DNA of 64,000 bases from a bacterium (GCA_030697795.1 JAUYOV010000007.1:9810-73809); one strand, 5' to 3'. Positions 18,689 to 29,134 are shown, counted from the first letter of the stretch. A program made the numbers and translations. Notes: generated by a model from the sequence alone, not told the origin.

Positions 18689-19036
18689 TTAGTATTCGTC
18701 TCTGCGACCGCCACCGAAACCGCCTCGGCCGCCGCCGCTATTACCGCCGCGGCTAAATCCGCCACCGGTTCTGCGAGGAGGCCTATCACCCATAGGGCGG
18801 GCTTCGTTTACAGTCAGTTTACGGCCTTCGAAATCTTTACCGTTCCACATTTCAATGGCTTTCTCGGCGTCTTCGTCGTTAACCATTTCCACGAAACCAA
18901 AGCCTCGTGAGCGGCCAGTCATCTTGTCGGTTATTATGGTAGCCGACTCAACTTCGCCAGCCTGTGAAAAAGCATCTTTCAAACCGTCTTGAGTGGTGCT
19001 GTAAGGCAAACCACCAATATATAATTTCTTTGACAT
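18689..19036 (-). CDS. glycine-rich RNA-binding protein (RRM domain)
   Basis: RNP-2 'LYIGGL' and RNP-1 'RGFGFVEM', with an RGG/GGF tail. GC-rich relative to flanks; structured 5' leader. Confidence 0.85.
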   Translation of the reverse strand: MSKKLYIGGLPYSTTQDGLKDAFSQAGEVESATIITDKMTGRSRGFGFVEMVNDEDAEKAIEMWNGKDFEGRKLTVNEARPMGDRPPRRTGGGFSRGGNSGGGRGGFGGGRRDEY

Positions 19037-19367
19037 TGTGCTCTTATGCTAAATATGTGTAAGGCGACCTCTCTTTGTTTCTATTGGGGCTTTTCGCCTT
19101 ACTATCTATGCTTTGAGCATAAGACTCCGAAACTACGAGATATCTTACAACATCTTATTTATAAACTATTACAAACTTAAAAGCAACCCCGCTCTTGAAA
19201 AGTATATTTTCTCTGATTGCCTTCGGCAATACTTTTCAGGGACGGAGTTTGACCCAGCAGAGCAAATTTGACAAACAAGTTTATAAAGTGTAGTATGTAT
19301 CCAACAGTAACAGACAGTCCTTTCCCACAAAAAGTCGCGTATGACGCGATTAACCAAGGAGGTTAGT

Positions 19368-20120
19368 ATGAAGAAGTGTTTTATGATTCTCTCCGCGATA
19401 CTGATCGGACTGATCAGCTCGCCACCCGCACAAGCCAAGCTGATCCTGCCAAGCGATCTGGTCATCACCACCACAGAGATGGCCGGCACCGGGTTCTCCA
19501 TCGACCAGAAGGTTGAGGGCGATATCCTCACACTCACCTTTGATATCGTGGACAAGGCCGACATCAGAAATTTCGGCTTCGGTCTGAAGTTCGACCCCAA
19601 CGAATACAAGCTGGAACAAGTTGAGTCGGGCTTCATCATCAGTTCAGATAATCCCGACAACGTGTCTATCGGTAGTCTGTTCACGTTAAAGGACGTACCC
19701 AAAACCACCGTGATCACCTTGAGAAAAAAGGGAGACAAATGGGGTACCATCACTCCTCAAGAACTCAATGTGTTCACTAGTGGGAAACGAATACTCGCCT
19801 TCGAACCGGCGCCGTCCTTCGTACCGAAAGCATCGGCAATGCCGAAAGCGTTGACTCTGGGCAACTACCCCAACCCCTTCAACCCCGAGACCGAGATACG
19901 GTATAGTTTGCCCGCCGACGGTCTTGTCGAGTTGAAGATCTACAACATGGTCGGCCAGGTGGTACGCACATTGGTGAGCGGACACATGCCCGCCGGCGAA
20001 CACGTCATCAAGTGGAACGCTACCGACAATAGTGGCCAACCGATCGCCGGAGGCATCTACTTCTACAAGCTTACCTCGGGCGCCCAAACGGCCGTCCGTA
20101 GAATGCTTCTGCTGAAATAG
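19368..20120 (+). CDS. secreted protein with T9SS-type (Por) C-terminal sorting domain
   Basis: AAGGAGG RBS and signal peptide 'MKKCFMILSAILIGLISSPPAQA'. C-terminal 'NYPNPFNPETEIRYSLPADGLVELKIYNMVGQVVRTL...GIYFYKLTSG' matches the T9SS CTD consensus. The region is markedly GC-rich. Confidence 0.7.
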   Translation: MKKCFMILSAILIGLISSPPAQAKLILPSDLVITTTEMAGTGFSIDQKVEGDILTLTFDIVDKADIRNFGFGLKFDPNEYKLEQVESGFIISSDNPDNVSIGSLFTLKDVPKTTVITLRKKGDKWGTITPQELNVFTSGKRILAFEPAPSFVPKASAMPKALTLGNYPNPFNPETEIRYSLPADGLVELKIYNMVGQVVRTLVSGHMPAGEHVIKWNATDNSGQPIAGGIYFYKLTSGAQTAVRRMLLLK

Positions 20121-21970: not shown

Positions 21971-22189
21971 TGGTGTTCTATTCTACTATTTATCAAACTA
22001 AAAAGACAAGTTTTTGTTTTCGCGAGCGAAAATTGTTTGAATTTTCAACCCACCACTATTAGAGAATATTCCTACCTAATCTTTAACCACTAGTCAATTT
22101 TATATACAAATTGTAATTTTTTATCTTTGTTCCACTACTTCAGGACTAGTAAAAGTGACCCTCCTCATTTTTAAAATAAGAATACATAT

Positions 22190-22242
22190 GCTAACTATAG
22201 TATGTAGAACTAAAACCAGCAAAAACATATACTATAGTTAGC
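22190..22242 (+). promoter_or_regulatory. C-box-like operator: 14-bp inverted arms GCTAACTATAGTAT / ATACTATAGTTAGC, each containing the palindrome ACTATAGT, about 25 bp apart
   Basis: Lies 18-70 bp upstream of the controller-protein start, the usual position for C-protein autoregulatory sites. Confidence 0.5.
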
Positions 22243-22259
22243 TAATATAGGGAAAAGCT

Positions 22260-22481
22260 ATGCACAATAAAATTGAACTACTAGAAAAATTTGGCAAAAA
22301 GATTAGGGAAGAAAGATTTAAAAGAGGTTTTTCACAGGAAGAACTTGCTATTAGAACAGGTGTTCACCGCACTTATATTGGTATGATAGAAAGAGGGGAG
22401 AAAAATATCACCCTAATCAATATAAAAAAAATTGCAAAAGCTTTTGATTTGACAATTGATAAACTTTTAACTAATTTATAA
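22260..22481 (+). CDS. XRE-family HTH controller (C) protein of an R-M system
   Basis: 73-aa Cro/C1-type HTH. Stop codon abuts the ATG of the next gene. Convergent MTase follows. Confidence 0.65.
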   Translation: MHNKIELLEKFGKKIREERFKRGFSQEELAIRTGVHRTYIGMIERGEKNITLINIKKIAKAFDLTIDKLLTNL

Positions 22482-23180
22482 ATGGATATAAAAAAGTTAG
22501 AAAATCTTATTAATGACGAGATGGACAAGGTGATCTTGAAAATAGTAAATGATTTTCAAGAACTTAATATATCAGCCAAATCAAGGGCTGGAGCAGAAAT
22601 AAGTGATTTTCTTGAAGATAGGTTTGTTGAATATACGAAAAGCAATAAATTCTTTACGAAATCTGAAAAATCACCAAAGGGTGCTACAAAAAATCCATGG
22701 GACGCTAAAACAGTTTTCTGCTTAAATAATCTTCAAGAAACAATCTGGATTGATTTTAAGGCATTAAAAACTTCTAGCAAAGACAGTAATCCTGATATTG
22801 GAACTCCAAATAAAATAGTTAGCTTTATCAAAGAAGGTAATTTTTATCTCCTTTATGTTTATGTTTTTTATGAAGAAACAAAAAAGGGATTAAAGTTCGT
22901 AAAGATAAATGGTGATTATATAAAATCTTATTTTTTGAAAGATATTAGCCATACCTTTCGAAGAAACCCCAAAAATCAATTGCAGGTAAATATATCAGAA
23001 TTACCAGAATATCGCACAAGAAAAGATTTTATCAAGCTATTAGTAAAGAAAATTAAAGAATCACATGAACGACAAATAAAAAATTCTGGCAAGGCTCTAA
23101 AAAATTTACCAGAGGAAGAAAAAATATTATTAAAAAAGAATAAAGAATCAGAAGCTAAGATTTTAAAAAATCTGAAATAG
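22482..23180 (+). CDS. putative type II restriction endonuclease
   Basis: Position is between the C protein and the MTase. Very low GC. No motif confidently recognised. Confidence 0.4.
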   Translation: MDIKKLENLINDEMDKVILKIVNDFQELNISAKSRAGAEISDFLEDRFVEYTKSNKFFTKSEKSPKGATKNPWDAKTVFCLNNLQETIWIDFKALKTSSKDSNPDIGTPNKIVSFIKEGNFYLLYVYVFYEETKKGLKFVKINGDYIKSYFLKDISHTFRRNPKNQLQVNISELPEYRTRKDFIKLLVKKIKESHERQIKNSGKALKNLPEEEKILLKKNKESEAKILKNLK

Positions 23181-24876
23181 AATTTTTTACAAAAACAACT
23201 TCTTCTGTGTTCAAATCATAAAACTCATAAATTAACAGGTTAAGTTTATTTTCTAGCTCCTCTTTATCTGTATAGTCTCTGTAGACTCTTTCAACAATGT
23301 TGCAAATTTTTTCTTGCAATTTGATATCGTCAGGAATTGGCATAGAATATAAATCAGAAATTTTTATCTGAGGCTGTTTACCCTTTCTATAGCGAATAAT
23401 TTCCATTTTTTGTGCATAAAAAGTAGCAATCATAGAATTCAAATAACCACACAAAAAATTAAGATAATCTTTTGTTTTTTTATCTCCTTTTTTCAAAGAA
23501 AACACATATAAGCTGTTATTGGCGGAACTCGGGTTTTTATCATAAGTGCAAATAATTTCCTTAGCTGATTGTCTTATAAATATCTTGGGATTATCATATA
23601 CCAAAAAATCACCCAATCCAATTCTTTTTTTATTTTTTATTCCTTTTTTAATAAGTTCTTCTTTCAAATCGTCATTAATTTTATCTTGTAATTTTTTATC
23701 GTAGTAAAAATATTTATCAGAAAAAAGAATACAATATTTATCATAAAGTGCTTTCGATCCTTGATAATATTTATAGTTTTTATAACCTCTTTCATTGTTT
23801 TGCTCTACGCTAACAAATTTATTTTCCATATCCAGCAACATTGTGCATGTTCTAAGTTCTTTCTTAGGAAATTGATCTTTGAGAGTTCTAGATGATTTTT
23901 TGTTAATTTTATCTAGAATATTTTGGGCAATATTCGAAAAATTAAGTCTAAATTTATATTCATCATTTTCATTCAGCCAAGCGGTTTGATTAATTTCTTG
24001 TAGTTCTTCGGTAAAAAAGTTTCTTACCTTCACAACATTTTTTTTATCAAATTTATTTTCTATTTTAATTATTAGCTGCCCACTTGCAACACCATCAAAA
24101 CTTGAAATATTGTTTTCTATTGTATTGATTTTGGTATTTTCTAATAGATATTTCCGTGTGTATTTGTAGGCTGTTTCAAAAAAAGATATATCAATAATAA
24201 AAGCAAGTTTCCCATTTCTTTTAAGATAATCTAAGCTATGTTCGAGAAAAAGCATTACATAATTAATTTTTCCGTTTTTTAAACTTTTTGGAAATTGTCT
24301 ATACTGACTTAAATAATTTACTCTTTGCATCTCATCCCTCTTTTGATCTCTTCTTCCGTATAACGTTACGTAAGGAGGATTGCCAATAACATAATCCATA
24401 CTTTCTAAAATAAGCTCAAGATCTTTATTTTTTGTTTTGTTAAATTCAAATAAAGTAAGATCATTTTTTACTTTTTCAGTAAAATCATATATAAAGGCAT
24501 TGAACTTACCTTTGTATTTCTCACCAAAAAAACTATCATATAAATCTGATATATTTTCTTTTGTCCTTTTTATCATTTCTGGGTCGATATCAATGAAATA
24601 TAAACCATTCTCAATAAAATACCGAATTTTTTCTTTATCTGGGCAACATTGATATATTCTTTCAAGCATTCTTAATAAAAAAATTCCACTACCAACTGCT
24701 GGCTCTAATATTTTTTTGTTTATAATTCCATCTTTAAATTCAATAATATCAAGAATAGAATCAATAATATTTATTTCATTAGTAAAAAAGACCCCATTAT
24801 TCTTTTTAAATTTGTAAGATAACTGATCTTGATAATTTATTTGTTTTTTTATTGTTTTTAAAATTATTTGATTCAT
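23155..24876 (-). CDS. N6-adenine DNA methyltransferase (gamma-class)
   Basis: Motif I 'EPAVGSGIFL' and motif IV 'GNPPYV'. Start moved to the internal 'MNQIIL' so that it no longer overlaps the divergent OLD gene. Confidence 0.8.
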   Translation of the reverse strand: MNQIILKTIKKQINYQDQLSYKFKKNNGVFFTNEINIIDSILDIIEFKDGIINKKILEPAVGSGIFLLRMLERIYQCCPDKEKIRYFIENGLYFIDIDPEMIKRTKENISDLYDSFFGEKYKGKFNAFIYDFTEKVKNDLTLFEFNKTKNKDLELILESMDYVIGNPPYVTLYGRRDQKRDEMQRVNYLSQYRQFPKSLKNGKINYVMLFLEHSLDYLKRNGKLAFIIDISFFETAYKYTRKYLLENTKINTIENNISSFDGVASGQLIIKIENKFDKKNVVKVRNFFTEELQEINQTAWLNENDEYKFRLNFSNIAQNILDKINKKSSRTLKDQFPKKELRTCTMLLDMENKFVSVEQNNERGYKNYKYYQGSKALYDKYCILFSDKYFYYDKKLQDKINDDLKEELIKKGIKNKKRIGLGDFLVYDNPKIFIRQSAKEIICTYDKNPSSANNSLYVFSLKKGDKKTKDYLNFLCGYLNSMIATFYAQKMEIIRYRKGKQPQIKISDLYSMPIPDDIKLQEKICNIVERVYRDYTDKEELENKLNLLIYEFYDLNTEEVVFVKNSISDFLKS

Positions 24877-24947
24877 GTGTTTAGGAATATTTAAATATTT
24901 GCTAATCTTAGTATACAGGGCTATAATAAAAAATACAAACACTATAA

Positions 24948-26708
24948 TTGGCAAAAAATATGAGGATTACTAAGCTTATCATAAAAAATTATCGGAGTTT
25001 TGACTCCGTGGGGCAGAAAATTTTGTTCCCTGCTTTCCACTCTGCCCTTGTAGGCAAGAATAACTCAGGAAAAACAAACATCTTTAATGCGCTAAATTTA
25101 GTTTTGGGTAACAAAAATCCAGCTTATTTAAGATTTGAAAAAGATGATTATTTTGATTCTAATAAGCCAATAGAAATACAAGCCATGATTTCAGATATTA
25201 CTGCAACAGACAAGAGTCATATCTTTTCCATTCCAAACCTTACCAAACAACAGCAAGGTGCTTTAAATAGCAAAGTCAGTGACGGTACAGCGGATATTAC
25301 TTTTCTACTCAGAAAGAACTATGAATATCTTCCTCTGGATGATTCGGATGAAGAATCAGAAAGTAGTCAGGATACTTTTGAAATAAAACTTTGGGGATTT
25401 AATGTTTTTAGAAAGAAAGAAGATGTTAGAAAATCAGTAATAAAAATGTTAATGGTTCCCGCAATAAGAGATTATCAAGATGAGCTTTCAGCTTCCAAGT
25501 GGACGGCATATGGTCAATTAATGAAGGAGGTTTTGGAAAACTCACCCCATTACTCCAATATAAAAACTGATCTTTCAAATCTAAATATAAAAATTCAGCA
25601 GGTTTTTGAAACAGAAAAAACAAAATTACTCGAAGGAGCACAAATAGTATCATACGTTGACGATATAAATTTTCAATTAACAAAAGATGATAGTCCGTCG
25701 GAACTATTGAGAAATCTGGAAATATTTATAACAGAAGGGTCAAAAAAGTTTAATATCGAATATGTTGGAACAGGCACGCAGAATGCAATAATTATTGGAA
25801 TTTTAGAGTTAGCATTAAAAAATAAGAGTTCAAAGATTAAACTTTTCTGCATTGAAGAACCAGAAGCTTTCATACATCCTCACGGAATCAGATATTTGGG
25901 TTCGCTGATAAAAAATATATCAAAAGACCAAAATACTCAGATTTTAGTATCCACACATTCCTTGTCCCTGACGGCTAATTTTGCTCCAAATGAAATTATT
26001 AGGGTAGATAAAACATATGGAAAAACTGTCATCAAGCAAGATGTATCAATAGGCAACACTCATTTTAGAAGATTTATTCATCAGGATAATGCTGAAATAT
26101 TTTTTAGCGACAGAGTTCTCTTTATTGAAGGACCAACAGAAAAACACTTGTTTGGAAATCTTGATAAGCTGACAAAGTTAAATCCAGCCGACCCAAATGG
26201 TATAAATTGCAATTTTGATCGAATTAATCTTGGTGTAATCAGGCTTGATTCTATCAATTCCATTGTGAATTACATAAAAATTGCGGAGGCTTTTAGCATT
26301 CCTTATTCAGCCATAGTAGATAGAGATTTTATTGATGATCCGAGCAAACAAAATAAATGTAAGGAATTATGCTCAGAGGTGGGGGCAAGCTATCAGACGT
26401 CAGATAAAGTAAAATTAATCAGTGATTTGAAAGCAAAAAATATTGTCGTAAATAGCAAAGGAGAAATTGAGGATATATTTTCTGATCAAGAAATTACAAG
26501 TATCACAGGCAAACAAATTGCAGATATTCAAGCAATAAAATCTAGACACACCAAAACTAGTAAAGCTTTCAAGGAAATTTTTGGGGTTGGAAAAGCTGAA
26601 TATGCAATTGTTATAGCTGATTTTTATTCTCAAAATACTCAAACACACCCGCTTGATGATATTATTAGAAAAATTTACAATAATAATATACTAAATATAA
26701 ATATTTAA
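24948..26708 (+). CDS. OLD-family ATP-dependent endonuclease (ABC-ATPase + TOPRIM)
   Basis: Walker A 'GKNNSGKTN', 'IEEPEAFIHPH' and 'STHS' motifs. C-terminal TOPRIM 'LFIEGPTEKHLF'. No UvrD-like partner gene adjacent. Confidence 0.7.
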   Translation: MAKNMRITKLIIKNYRSFDSVGQKILFPAFHSALVGKNNSGKTNIFNALNLVLGNKNPAYLRFEKDDYFDSNKPIEIQAMISDITATDKSHIFSIPNLTKQQQGALNSKVSDGTADITFLLRKNYEYLPLDDSDEESESSQDTFEIKLWGFNVFRKKEDVRKSVIKMLMVPAIRDYQDELSASKWTAYGQLMKEVLENSPHYSNIKTDLSNLNIKIQQVFETEKTKLLEGAQIVSYVDDINFQLTKDDSPSELLRNLEIFITEGSKKFNIEYVGTGTQNAIIIGILELALKNKSSKIKLFCIEEPEAFIHPHGIRYLGSLIKNISKDQNTQILVSTHSLSLTANFAPNEIIRVDKTYGKTVIKQDVSIGNTHFRRFIHQDNAEIFFSDRVLFIEGPTEKHLFGNLDKLTKLNPADPNGINCNFDRINLGVIRLDSINSIVNYIKIAEAFSIPYSAIVDRDFIDDPSKQNKCKELCSEVGASYQTSDKVKLISDLKAKNIVVNSKGEIEDIFSDQEITSITGKQIADIQAIKSRHTKTSKAFKEIFGVGKAEYAIVIADFYSQNTQTHPLDDIIRKIYNNNILNINI

Positions 26709-26726
26709 AAAAACTTGTCGCAATAT

Positions 26727-28668: not shown

Positions 28669-28908
28669 TTAAACTTTGTAAGTATTTTCATTGCGGCGCT
28701 CAATAGTAAGAATGGAAATATCTTTTCCTTCTTTAATAAAAAGAATCCTTATTTTGCCCTTGCGAATTCTAAAAATATTTTGATGCCCGCTTAATTTTTT
28801 AATATCTAAATTGCGCCAATCTAAAGAGATAACTCTTTTAATCAGAATTTCTATAATCCTTCTTTCTTCTTTGTTAAATTTAGAAAGAAGTTTTTTAAGT
28901 CTGGGCAT
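28669..28908 (-). CDS. RelE/ParE-family toxin
   Basis: 'SGHQNIFRIRKGKIRILF' motif. Overlaps the upstream antitoxin by 14 bp. Confidence 0.6.
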   Translation of the reverse strand: MPRLKKLLSKFNKEERRIIEILIKRVISLDWRNLDIKKLSGHQNIFRIRKGKIRILFIKEGKDISILTIERRNENTYKV

Positions 28909-29134
28909 TCAATTTGCGAAGTTCTGCTAGAATTTCTCTGGCAGCTAAGCCATTTTTGTTTATTTTTGTAAAGTCAACAATGGTTTCCCATTGTTCTTCT
29001 GCTTCAGGAGGTACAATCTTAAAAACCGGTTTTGATTTCCTAACAACAGTAAAAGATTTACCCTTATCAATTTGAGAAATATAAATATCTAAGTTTTCCC
29101 TTAATTCTTTTAAGCCAACGATGGTGTTTTTCAT
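28895..29134 (-). CDS. Phd/YefM-family antitoxin
   Basis: 'IVGLKELRENLDIYISQIDKGKSFTVVRKSKPVFKIVP' pattern. Confidence 0.6.
   Translation of the reverse strand: MKNTIVGLKELRENLDIYISQIDKGKSFTVVRKSKPVFKIVPPEAEEQWETIVDFTKINKNGLAAREILAELRKLNAQT

Follow-up and report, generated by a model that had tools for sequence, protein, structure and literature searches.

The locus considered here lies at positions 22190 to 26708 of a 64,000-nucleotide (nt) stretch of bacterial DNA (GCA_030697795.1, JAUYOV010000007.1:9810–73809), which was analysed over its whole length and is referred to below as the window. It comprises the controller (C), endonuclease (R) and methyltransferase (M) genes of a restriction-modification (R-M) system and, beyond them, a gene for an OLD-family nuclease, and it raises the question of whether the latter is a lone defence gene or one that belongs with R-M systems. 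In a preliminary description, made from the sequence alone, the locus was read as a C-protein-controlled type II R-M system plus a standalone OLD protein resembling class 1, together forming an acquired defence island. All four open reading frames (ORFs) were recovered by ORF calling at or close to the positions given there. The explanation that we favour as a whole, with reasonable though far from full confidence, is that of an acquired SwaI-type C-R-M cassette joined to an OLD protein that serves R-M systems as an accessory. Homologous loci in other genomes and contigs are cited by number (L001 and so on).

Restriction-modification genes and their control elements

The 232-amino acid (aa) product of the R gene (22482–23180, + strand) had been presumed to be the endonuclease and was credited with no recognised fold. 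The presumption proved sound, while the statement on the fold has to be withdrawn: the protein matches the Pfam family PF22081 (SwaI-like) over profile positions 1–208 of 208 (E 1.3e-93; 312.8 bits, cut-off 27) and is 54% identical to R.SwaI itself (PDB 5TGQ; E 2.8e-64), so that a check for a non-nuclease fold returned a nuclease family. Catalysis by SwaI requires D76, D93 and K95, and its base contacts all come from R35, K72, N105, D107, K166 and Q170 (PMC5415892). In an alignment to 5tgq the window protein has the identical amino acid at all nine positions, namely catalytic D74, D91 and K93 and base-contacting R35, K70, N103, D105, K164 and Q168, respectively. Judged by these matches the protein is a Type IIP, SwaI-family PD-(D/E)xK enzyme and, because all nine residues are identical, it is predicted to be a SwaI isoschizomer that cuts at ATTT^AAAT. 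The R-M system is routine and joins, as a new member, a family that is well known and whose structure has been solved. Its endonuclease, as a likely SwaI isoschizomer, would make an uncultured bacterium of the Candidate Phyla Radiation (CPR) a new source of a rare 8-base pair (bp) A:T cutter, of possible interest to enzyme suppliers.

The M gene (23155–24876, − strand) is convergent with R, the two genes overlapping at their 3' ends by 26 bp (23155–23180). Translation from the ATG at 24876, a start common to its homologues, gives 573 aa and not the 574 reported before. The product matches Pfam Eco57I (2.9e-15), N6_Mtase (1.3e-11) and, at its C-terminus, the specificity domain TaqI_C (7.7e-11), as well as the PADLOC profile MTase_II (1.9e-18); a search of the PDB by sequence returned zero matches. 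Its motifs run in the order PAVGSG, NPPY and then the TaqI_C domain, and because PAVGSG precedes NPPY the protein fits a gamma-class N6-methyladenine (m6A) methyltransferase, which agrees with the earlier reading of the gene convergent with the C-R pair.

A scan of one genome per species identified 36 loci with a SwaI-like endonuclease (51–89% identity), hosted by Patescibacteria, Bacteroidota, Cyanobacteria, Leptospira, Firmicutes, Proteobacteria and others. R converges with a homologous methyltransferase gene in 34 of these loci and a C gene is present in most; the order in which C lies upstream of, and co-oriented with, the endonuclease gene recurs in at least 24 related loci. The nearest relative of the window cassette is L001 (R 89% and M 85.5% identical), and it alone carries an ATPase gene at the position equivalent to that of OLD, with an N-terminus 36% identical to the window OLD. 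At 2417–2680 of L001, the intergenic region is homologous to the M-OLD spacer of the window up to the start codon, and the contig stops after 61 codons of the ATPase gene; a different ATPase thus appears to occupy the same docking position.

The C gene (22260–22481, + strand; 73 aa) encodes an XRE-type helix-turn-helix (HTH) protein, which was confirmed as a genuine R-M controller homologue by the PADLOC profile Control_protein (3.4e-20), by Pfam HTH_3 (4e-16) and by sequence matches to the PDB entries of C.BclI (2b5a, 1.8e-17), C.AhdI (1y7y, 3.6e-15) and C.Esp1396I (4e-8). As had been described, it is translationally abutted to R, its stop codon TAA directly meeting the ATG at 22482. Upstream of C, a repeat search and conservation in relatives delimit a putative C-box operator (22190–22242, + strand), in which GCTAACTATAGT at 22190–22201 is matched by an exact inverted copy, ACTATAGTTAGC, at 22231–22242, 18–29 bp upstream of the C start codon, and a degenerate inverted half-site, ACTAAAACCAGC, lies between the two at 22209–22220. 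A 21-nt inverted repeat was detected in this region, and the octamer ACTATAGT occurs just twice in the entire window, both times inside the operator. The boxes are kept in L002, L004 and L123 though the flanking sequence diverges; variants of them are found in L005 and L007–L014 (about ten further cassettes), and a classical GACTTATAGTC-type box in more distant cassettes.

A related C-box-like element, TTGCTAATCTTAGTATACA, is located at 24899–24917, 23–41 bp upstream of the M start codon, within a regulatory region shared by M and OLD (24899–24927, + strand). This element is conserved upstream of M in the window, in L001–L004 and in L123, and in L004 the box upstream of M, when reverse-complemented, is identical to the middle half-site of the C operator. 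A promoter-like site pointing towards OLD (TTGCTA-17-TATAAT), which scored 10/12 in a promoter scan, overlaps TTGCTAATCTTAGTATACA. By their sequence, C-boxes lie upstream of both C and M, and analogy with characterised controllers indicates that the C protein would act on the putative boxes at its own promoter and probably on that at the M promoter also. A second C-box-like site immediately upstream of OLD (24941–24952) was dropped, the box not being conserved in L001 or L123. Closer to M, the predicted recognition site ATTTAAAT (24889–24896) precedes the start codon by 13 bp; the window and L003 have the exact site, and in L001, L002 and L004 it is one base off (ATTTAAAC). Its significance is uncertain because this conservation is partial, and it might represent methylation-sensitive autoregulation of M or a chance occurrence in AT-rich DNA.

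Binding of C to its own boxes would lead to delayed, autoregulated expression of the co-transcribed endonuclease, and C would also bind the related box at the M promoter, as C.Esp1396I does. The endonuclease would then cut unmethylated ATTT^AAAT, and the gamma-class methyltransferase would protect host sites by m6A. Characterised relatives lend good support to C-timed expression of R, m6A protection and ATTT^AAAT cleavage as the probable workings of the cassette. Transcription of OLD, in turn, would begin in the intergenic region that contains the M box and lead away from M.

The OLD protein and its association with R-M genes

The OLD gene (24960–26708, + strand; 582 aa) starts at the ATG at 24960, its M1 being nearly invariant among homologues. 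Its product had been described as an OLD-family ATPase-TOPRIM protein, and both domains (Pfam AAA_15, 2.5e-29; OLD-like_TOPRIM, PF20469, 2.3e-11) and the quoted motifs were found, the protein containing GKNNSGKT, IEEPEAFIHPH, STHS, IEGPTE and VDRD. Residue conservation was assessed in an alignment of 45 sequences of its clade (at least 36% identity), in which the ATPase residues K38 (Walker A), E300 (Walker B), H306 (D loop) and H333 (H loop), the residue R170, and the TOPRIM residues E390, D454, D456, E504 and K532 are invariant, and E394 is nearly invariant (at least 90%). With the residues required in the OLD protein of Thermus scotoductus (TsOLD) as reference (PMC7049728), every ATPase and TOPRIM catalytic residue has a counterpart in the alignment, those of E504 and K532 being assigned by motif position and not by structural superposition, and by this measure the window protein is intact. 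The loss of TOPRIM catalytic residues that would have counted against the preliminary description was not found across the 45 sequences.

The class of the protein was approached through sequence, fold and local partners. Its PADLOC scores are near equal for Old (9.7e-47) and GajA (2.8e-46), and the sole match in a PDB sequence search is TsOLD (6p74; 4.5e-16), at 19% identity. An AlphaFold (AF2) model (pLDDT 82) has OLD-family proteins as its best PDB fold matches, with Foldseek values of 2.3e-20 for TsOLD, 4e-19 for GajA and 8e-17 for the retron Eco8 OLD, and includes a helical C-terminal region after TOPRIM (about residues 503–573) that carries the invariant K532. Owing to these near-equal matches and the C-terminal helices the fold assigns no class; in the model, classes 1, 2 and 3 match almost equally, leaving class 1 and class 2 undivided. 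No helicase, reverse transcriptase (RT) or AriB partner of OLD was detected among the ORFs and Pfam matches of the window. Class 2 (Gabija) was rejected, as the downstream neighbour is a convergent decarboxylase gene 18 bp away and UvrD is not among the families listed for clade neighbours. Classes 3 (retron) and 4 (PARIS) were rejected likewise: the window holds no RT ORF and no Rfam retron match, its Rfam scan giving three tRNAs only, all far from the locus, and ATPase and TOPRIM are fused in one ORF and not split between AriA and AriB as in class 4.

Two parts of the preliminary description of OLD stand, namely that it is divergent from the methyltransferase (M on the − strand, OLD on the + strand) and that it is without a UvrD-like partner in the window. 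Its reading as a standalone class 1 OLD stands in part: the local lack of helicase, RT and AriB agrees with it, while the fold does not separate class 1 from class 2 and clade relatives recurrently adjoin R-M genes. The latter observation comes from the closest homologues of OLD and from a metagenome scan, with ORF calling and Pfam annotation, that yielded 58 loci. In the closest homologue, L037 (91% protein identity), an HTH gene, a 560-aa N6_N4 methyltransferase gene, a 737-aa ResIII helicase gene and OLD follow one another on one strand with gaps of 4–15 bp. Other arrangements headed by C are C, TdeIII endonuclease, methyltransferase and OLD (L136, L141), the same with a Tsp45I endonuclease (L134), C, methyltransferase, TdeIII endonuclease and OLD (L125–L133), and C, methyltransferase, a 348-aa gene without assignment and OLD (L135). 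The layout of the window recurs in L123, where C and a ScaI endonuclease gene converge with the methyltransferase gene and OLD (87% identical) is divergent from it. Furthermore, OLD follows a C5 methyltransferase in L041, a type IIG Eco57I-like enzyme and a 206-aa gene in L145, and a methyltransferase in L156, L171, L155, L157, L131 and L132; it precedes type III Mod and Res in L154, and one further relative has an HTH-led operon of unassigned genes upstream. In at least 14 contexts OLD lies on the same strand as the R-M genes, at a gap of −4 to +30 bp.

To place these arrangements in proportion, duplicates were removed at 90% OLD identity, which left 110 neighbouring proteins in 31 contexts, and neighbour families were counted among the top 25 listed per scan. 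A scan of IMG/VR for phage-borne members of the clade gave only relatives of at most 28% identity, and these distant OLDs served as control, with 149 neighbouring proteins around 40 loci on viral contigs. The families listed for the clade include 15 DNA methyltransferases, 7 type II endonucleases, 3 ResIII and 7 HTH_3 proteins, and those listed for the control 3 N6_N4 methyltransferases, phage structural genes and the UvrD helicases of Gabija (5); methyltransferases thus make up about 14% of clade neighbours versus about 2% of control neighbours. UvrD, present in the control, is not among the families listed for the clade. With a seed-based method, a methyltransferase was found within three genes in 4 of 79 control loci and adjacent in 0 of 79.

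Class 1 OLDs have been described as single genes that are not close to other defence genes (PMC10568477; PMC6755086). Since the clade recurs beside R-M genes, the isolated-gene description of class 1 (PMC10568477) does not fit it. As the clade recurs beside or inside R-M operons of many types, OLD is probably an accessory of R-M systems, a second-layer nuclease, and not a lone gene, and a functional or regulatory tie to R-M systems has moderate support.

Two side observations concern individual members of the clade. In L037/L038/L124 (1–6169), L156, L171, L155, L157 and L176/L177 a methyltransferase gene, with or without a ResIII or SNF2 helicase gene, directly precedes OLD and no endonuclease is recognisable; in such methyltransferase-OLD loci OLD could be the restricting nuclease itself. 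In L147 (402–2354) an OLD of 42% identity adjoins a fusion of ArdC-N, M78 peptidase and DnaG primase typical of conjugative elements, a context that suggests carriage of part of the clade by plasmids or integrative and conjugative elements.

Several observations weigh against the link between OLD and R-M that we favour. About 34 of the 36 genomes carry the SwaI-type cassette without OLD, and the M-side neighbours of other cassettes are defence genes of unrelated kinds (KAP NTPase, PHP-ABC ATPase with HNH and CBASS-like genes), a variety that fits plain defence-island clustering. About 10 of some 25 informative clade contexts are without a recognisable methyltransferase, the control is made up of viral loci that are distant relatives only, and the clade loci, most of them on short contigs assembled from metagenomes of similar groundwater sites, are for that reason imperfectly independent. 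In the window, OLD runs divergently from M and shares no transcript with the R-M genes, the box upstream of M and OLD was assigned as a C-box by sequence similarity only, and a restriction-site avoidance test showed no depletion of ATTTAAAT (10 sites versus 11.9 expected). Additionally, we know of no experiment that ties any class 1-like OLD to R-M function.

These observations bear on the alternative that the SwaI-type system and OLD, the latter an independent class 1 protein that stands alone, are neighbours in a defence island that each work by themselves, with no functional or regulatory link. We regard this as unlikely, although it is a reading that must be taken seriously. The rarity of OLD beside the cassette and the other defence genes found at the same M-side position elsewhere speak for it, as do the promoter-like site that OLD has of its own, divergent from M, the lack of a helicase, RT or AriB partner in the window, and the fact that single-gene class 1 OLDs can defend alone, as does that of Vibrio cholerae (Vc OLD; PMC12392090). 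It is countered by the clade itself, in which at least 14 contexts have OLD on the same strand as R-M genes of unrelated families, no more than 30 bp from them or overlapping them, by the higher share of methyltransferases among clade neighbours than in the control, and, in the window, by the overlap of the predicted OLD promoter with the conserved C-box-like element. An R-M-linked OLD is probably a better description than a stand-alone class 1 OLD, and one that makes a modest addition to a theme already emerging in the literature.

Mosaic structure and acquisition of the block

The 4.6-kilobase block that contains the four genes extends from about 22095 to 26724. Its GC content is 0.285, whereas 501 other segments of equal size in the window have a mean of 0.375 (standard deviation (sd) 0.018, minimum 0.342), which places it 5 sd under the mean and bears out the earlier statement that it is more AT-rich than its flanks; the halves differ, with 0.263 for the R-M part and 0.321 for OLD. 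On the left, the block begins with an arm (22095–22259, + strand) that forms the regulatory region upstream of C and in which homology to other cassettes sets in at about 22095–22107: in L123, L004 and L002 it begins about 165 bp upstream of C, the blastn alignments running from 22107 (L123) and 22163 (L004). On the right (26709–26724, + strand), alignments to L123, L134 and L037 have blastn end points at 26711–26721, so that homology to OLD loci stops 2–3 bp before the stop codon of the decarboxylase gene (26727), and homology to a relative of the host, L181, resumes at 26710. The left flank consists of ABC transporter ATPase and permease genes and the right flank of a gene for a pyridoxal phosphate-dependent ornithine/arginine decarboxylase (Pfam). 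The claim that almost no spare intergenic DNA separates the block from these genes holds on the right, where 18 bp lie between the stop codons of OLD and the convergent decarboxylase gene, and fails on the left because 289 bp of intergenic DNA are left there.

Each half of the block has close copies elsewhere. The R-M part shares 87% nucleotide identity with L001 (up to 24973), 86% with L002 (22188–24917), 82% with L003 and 76% with L004, and the segment 24958–26711 shares 89.7% with the OLD gene of L037, a locus with a different R-M system. L123 matches both arms (22107–22441 and 24899–26721) and not the R-M genes between them (blastn). The two mosaic segments overlap at the C-box/promoter region (24899–24941), which is from these alignments a plausible recombination joint. 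A co-inherited frame from C to OLD, in which the identity of C would track that of OLD, was considered and does not hold in general: in L037 the C protein is 33% identical as against 91% for OLD, and both arms are shared by L123 only.

The decarboxylase gene was used to place the host. Its homologues are 89–91% identical in Patescibacteria and 64–79% identical in Niyogibacteria, Nomurabacteria and Doudnabacteria. In a relative with 89% decarboxylase identity a MazE-Fic pair lies downstream of the gene, and in one with 77% a flavin adenine dinucleotide (FAD) oxidase gene is found there, the synteny of SecA and decarboxylase being kept. Conservation of the block among relatives, checked in this way, thus gave different content beside the decarboxylase gene. 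Deviant composition and mosaicism together support the conclusion that the block is mosaic DNA which entered a Patescibacteria (CPR) chromosome by horizontal transfer, in line with the acquired island first proposed. That it could instead be native, vertically inherited DNA is very improbable. The borders do lack the marks of a mobile element, as no integrase, tRNA or att-like flanking direct repeat was found at them, and no clean empty site was recovered among the relatives of 89–91% decarboxylase identity, which lie on 2.3–2.7-kilobase contigs; the 28-nt tail of L181 matched nowhere in the window. Vertical descent is, on the other hand, hard to reconcile with a GC content so far under that of the rest of the window, with halves that have copies of 82–90% nucleotide identity in other taxa and gene contexts, and with the MazE-Fic and FAD oxidase genes that the decarboxylase relatives carry instead.

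Some neighbouring features were recorded alongside. Between SecA and decarboxylase, at 28669–29134 (− strand), two overlapping 79-aa ORFs resemble a type II toxin-antitoxin pair: the upstream ORF matches the Phd/YefM antitoxin (3.9e-7), and the downstream ORF has no Pfam match and a RelE/ParE-like look. Given this pair and the MazE-Fic pairs beside the same decarboxylase gene in L181 and L182, small modules for addiction and defence seem to accumulate in this neighbourhood. At 19341–20120 (+ strand), an ORF of 259 aa, which encodes a signal peptide and, at the C-terminus, a FlgD_ig/Por_Secre_tail domain (type IX secretion sorting), lies in a sharply GC-rich patch (0.52–0.57, the window having 0.37). 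Such a tail and such a composition are unusual in Patescibacteria, and the patch could be a further acquisition or the product of a chimeric assembly. Adjoining it, at 18689–19036 (− strand), is a gene for a 115-aa RRM_1 RNA-binding protein (4.3e-25) with a Gly/Arg-rich tail.

Possible roles of OLD and comparison with known systems

If OLD is tied to R-M systems, its most likely role, which we put forward as speculation and as no better than a tentative choice, would be ATP-dependent, RecBCD-like degradation of DNA after the first restriction break. On linear DNA, P2 Old and TsOLD both act as 5'-3' exonucleases (PMC7049728, PMC10568477), and post-cut degradation is favoured because of this activity and because broken DNA is all that the unrelated types of partner R-M system share. 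It is about equally conceivable, and likewise not probable, that OLD acts independently, with shared regulation or hitch-hiking accounting for its position.

A backup role, the main alternative to degradation, is less likely still. OLD would in that case be an abortive-infection effector that guards the R-M system, senses phage interference with restriction and destroys nucleic acids of the host or the phage, tRNA perhaps among them. Parallels are known in PARIS AriA/AriB, which senses Ocr, in P2 Old, which responds to RecBCD inhibition, and in PrrC, which responds to inhibition of EcoprrI; PARIS and P2 Old cleave tRNA (PMC11464382, PMC12445682), and in a 2026 survey it was proposed that BREX and R-M-like loci have recruited OLD-ABC/TOPRIM modules as suicidal backup effectors (PMC12839542). 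The recurrent R-M linkage of the clade would agree with such a role, while the partner R-M systems belong to many unrelated types (IIP, IIG, III) and no sensor surface is identifiable in the OLD sequence. Known protein anti-restriction factors are type-specific and mostly directed against type I and BREX systems. With partners so diverse and anti-restriction factors so specific, a common trigger is hard to picture.

A broader reading, which we consider possible but would not yet back, is that the clade is a context-defined OLD class dedicated to R-M and wired into a C-protein/HTH circuit. OLD would then finish restricted DNA where RecBCD is absent, or restrict by itself in loci without an endonuclease, and the C region and the C-box of the M promoter would be recombination joints at which R-M specificity cassettes are swapped within a constant frame from C to OLD, as the comparison of the window with L123 would illustrate. 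The genome-reduced carrier bacteria may lack RecBCD-type enzymes.

Single-gene OLDs are regarded as isolated genes whose trigger and role are largely undescribed, whereas the clade of the window recurs at the end of type II, IIG and III R-M operons of unrelated specificity. Should the link be functional, it would provide a testable handle on the role of single-gene OLDs, either as a hand-off from site-specific cutting to ATP-driven degradation or as backup killing, and it would extend the idea of OLD as an auxiliary effector from BREX to classical R-M systems in genome-reduced bacteria. A fused OLD clade that ends classical type II R-M operons was not found described in the open-access literature; eleven uncharacterised OLD clades are listed in one study (PMC12796447), and a helicase-OLD (Gabija) pair beside the PluTI R-M system was noted in 2010 (PMC2875022).

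Compared with the SwaI system of Staphylococcus warneri (R.SwaI, PDB 5TGQ/5TGX/5TH3), the endonuclease of the window is homologous over its full length and an m6A methyltransferase partner is common to both. The window differs in its host, a Patescibacteria bacterium, in its C protein and C-boxes, the paper on the SwaI structure naming no controller (PMC5415892), and in the OLD gene attached to it; cleavage of ATTT^AAAT is, for the window enzyme, only predicted.

In its layout the locus is like Esp1396I, where a C-R operon is convergent with M and C sites are present at both the C-R and the M promoters, an arrangement well established for this family. With Esp1396I, AhdI and BclI it shares a homologous C protein, C-boxes upstream of C that are palindromic and have the core ACTnTAGT, and one related box upstream of M. 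It differs from them in that its exact inverted boxes are 41 bp apart, start to start, with a degenerate half-site in the middle, and in that the M box overlaps the predicted promoter of a divergent OLD gene.

Like the class 1 OLDs (P2 Old, Thermus scotoductus OLD (6P74) and Vibrio cholerae OLD), the window OLD is a single, partnerless ABC ATPase-TOPRIM polypeptide; TsOLD is its best match in both sequence and fold, and all catalytic residues have counterparts. Conversely, it is only 19% identical to TsOLD, GajA scores almost as well, the C-terminal helical region with K532 in its model is more class 2-like, and its clade is found in or beside R-M operons and not as isolated genes.

The closest parallels in context are the OLD-ABC/TOPRIM modules of the 2026 survey (PMC12839542) and the Gabija pair beside PluTI, in which, as in the clade of the window, an OLD-family nuclease is embedded in or adjoins a modification-based restriction locus. 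The clade differs from these in its partners, which are small classical type II (also IIG and III) systems with C-type regulators, in its OLD, which is a fused single gene without GajB or AriB, and in its carriers, which are mainly CPR and groundwater metagenome lineages.

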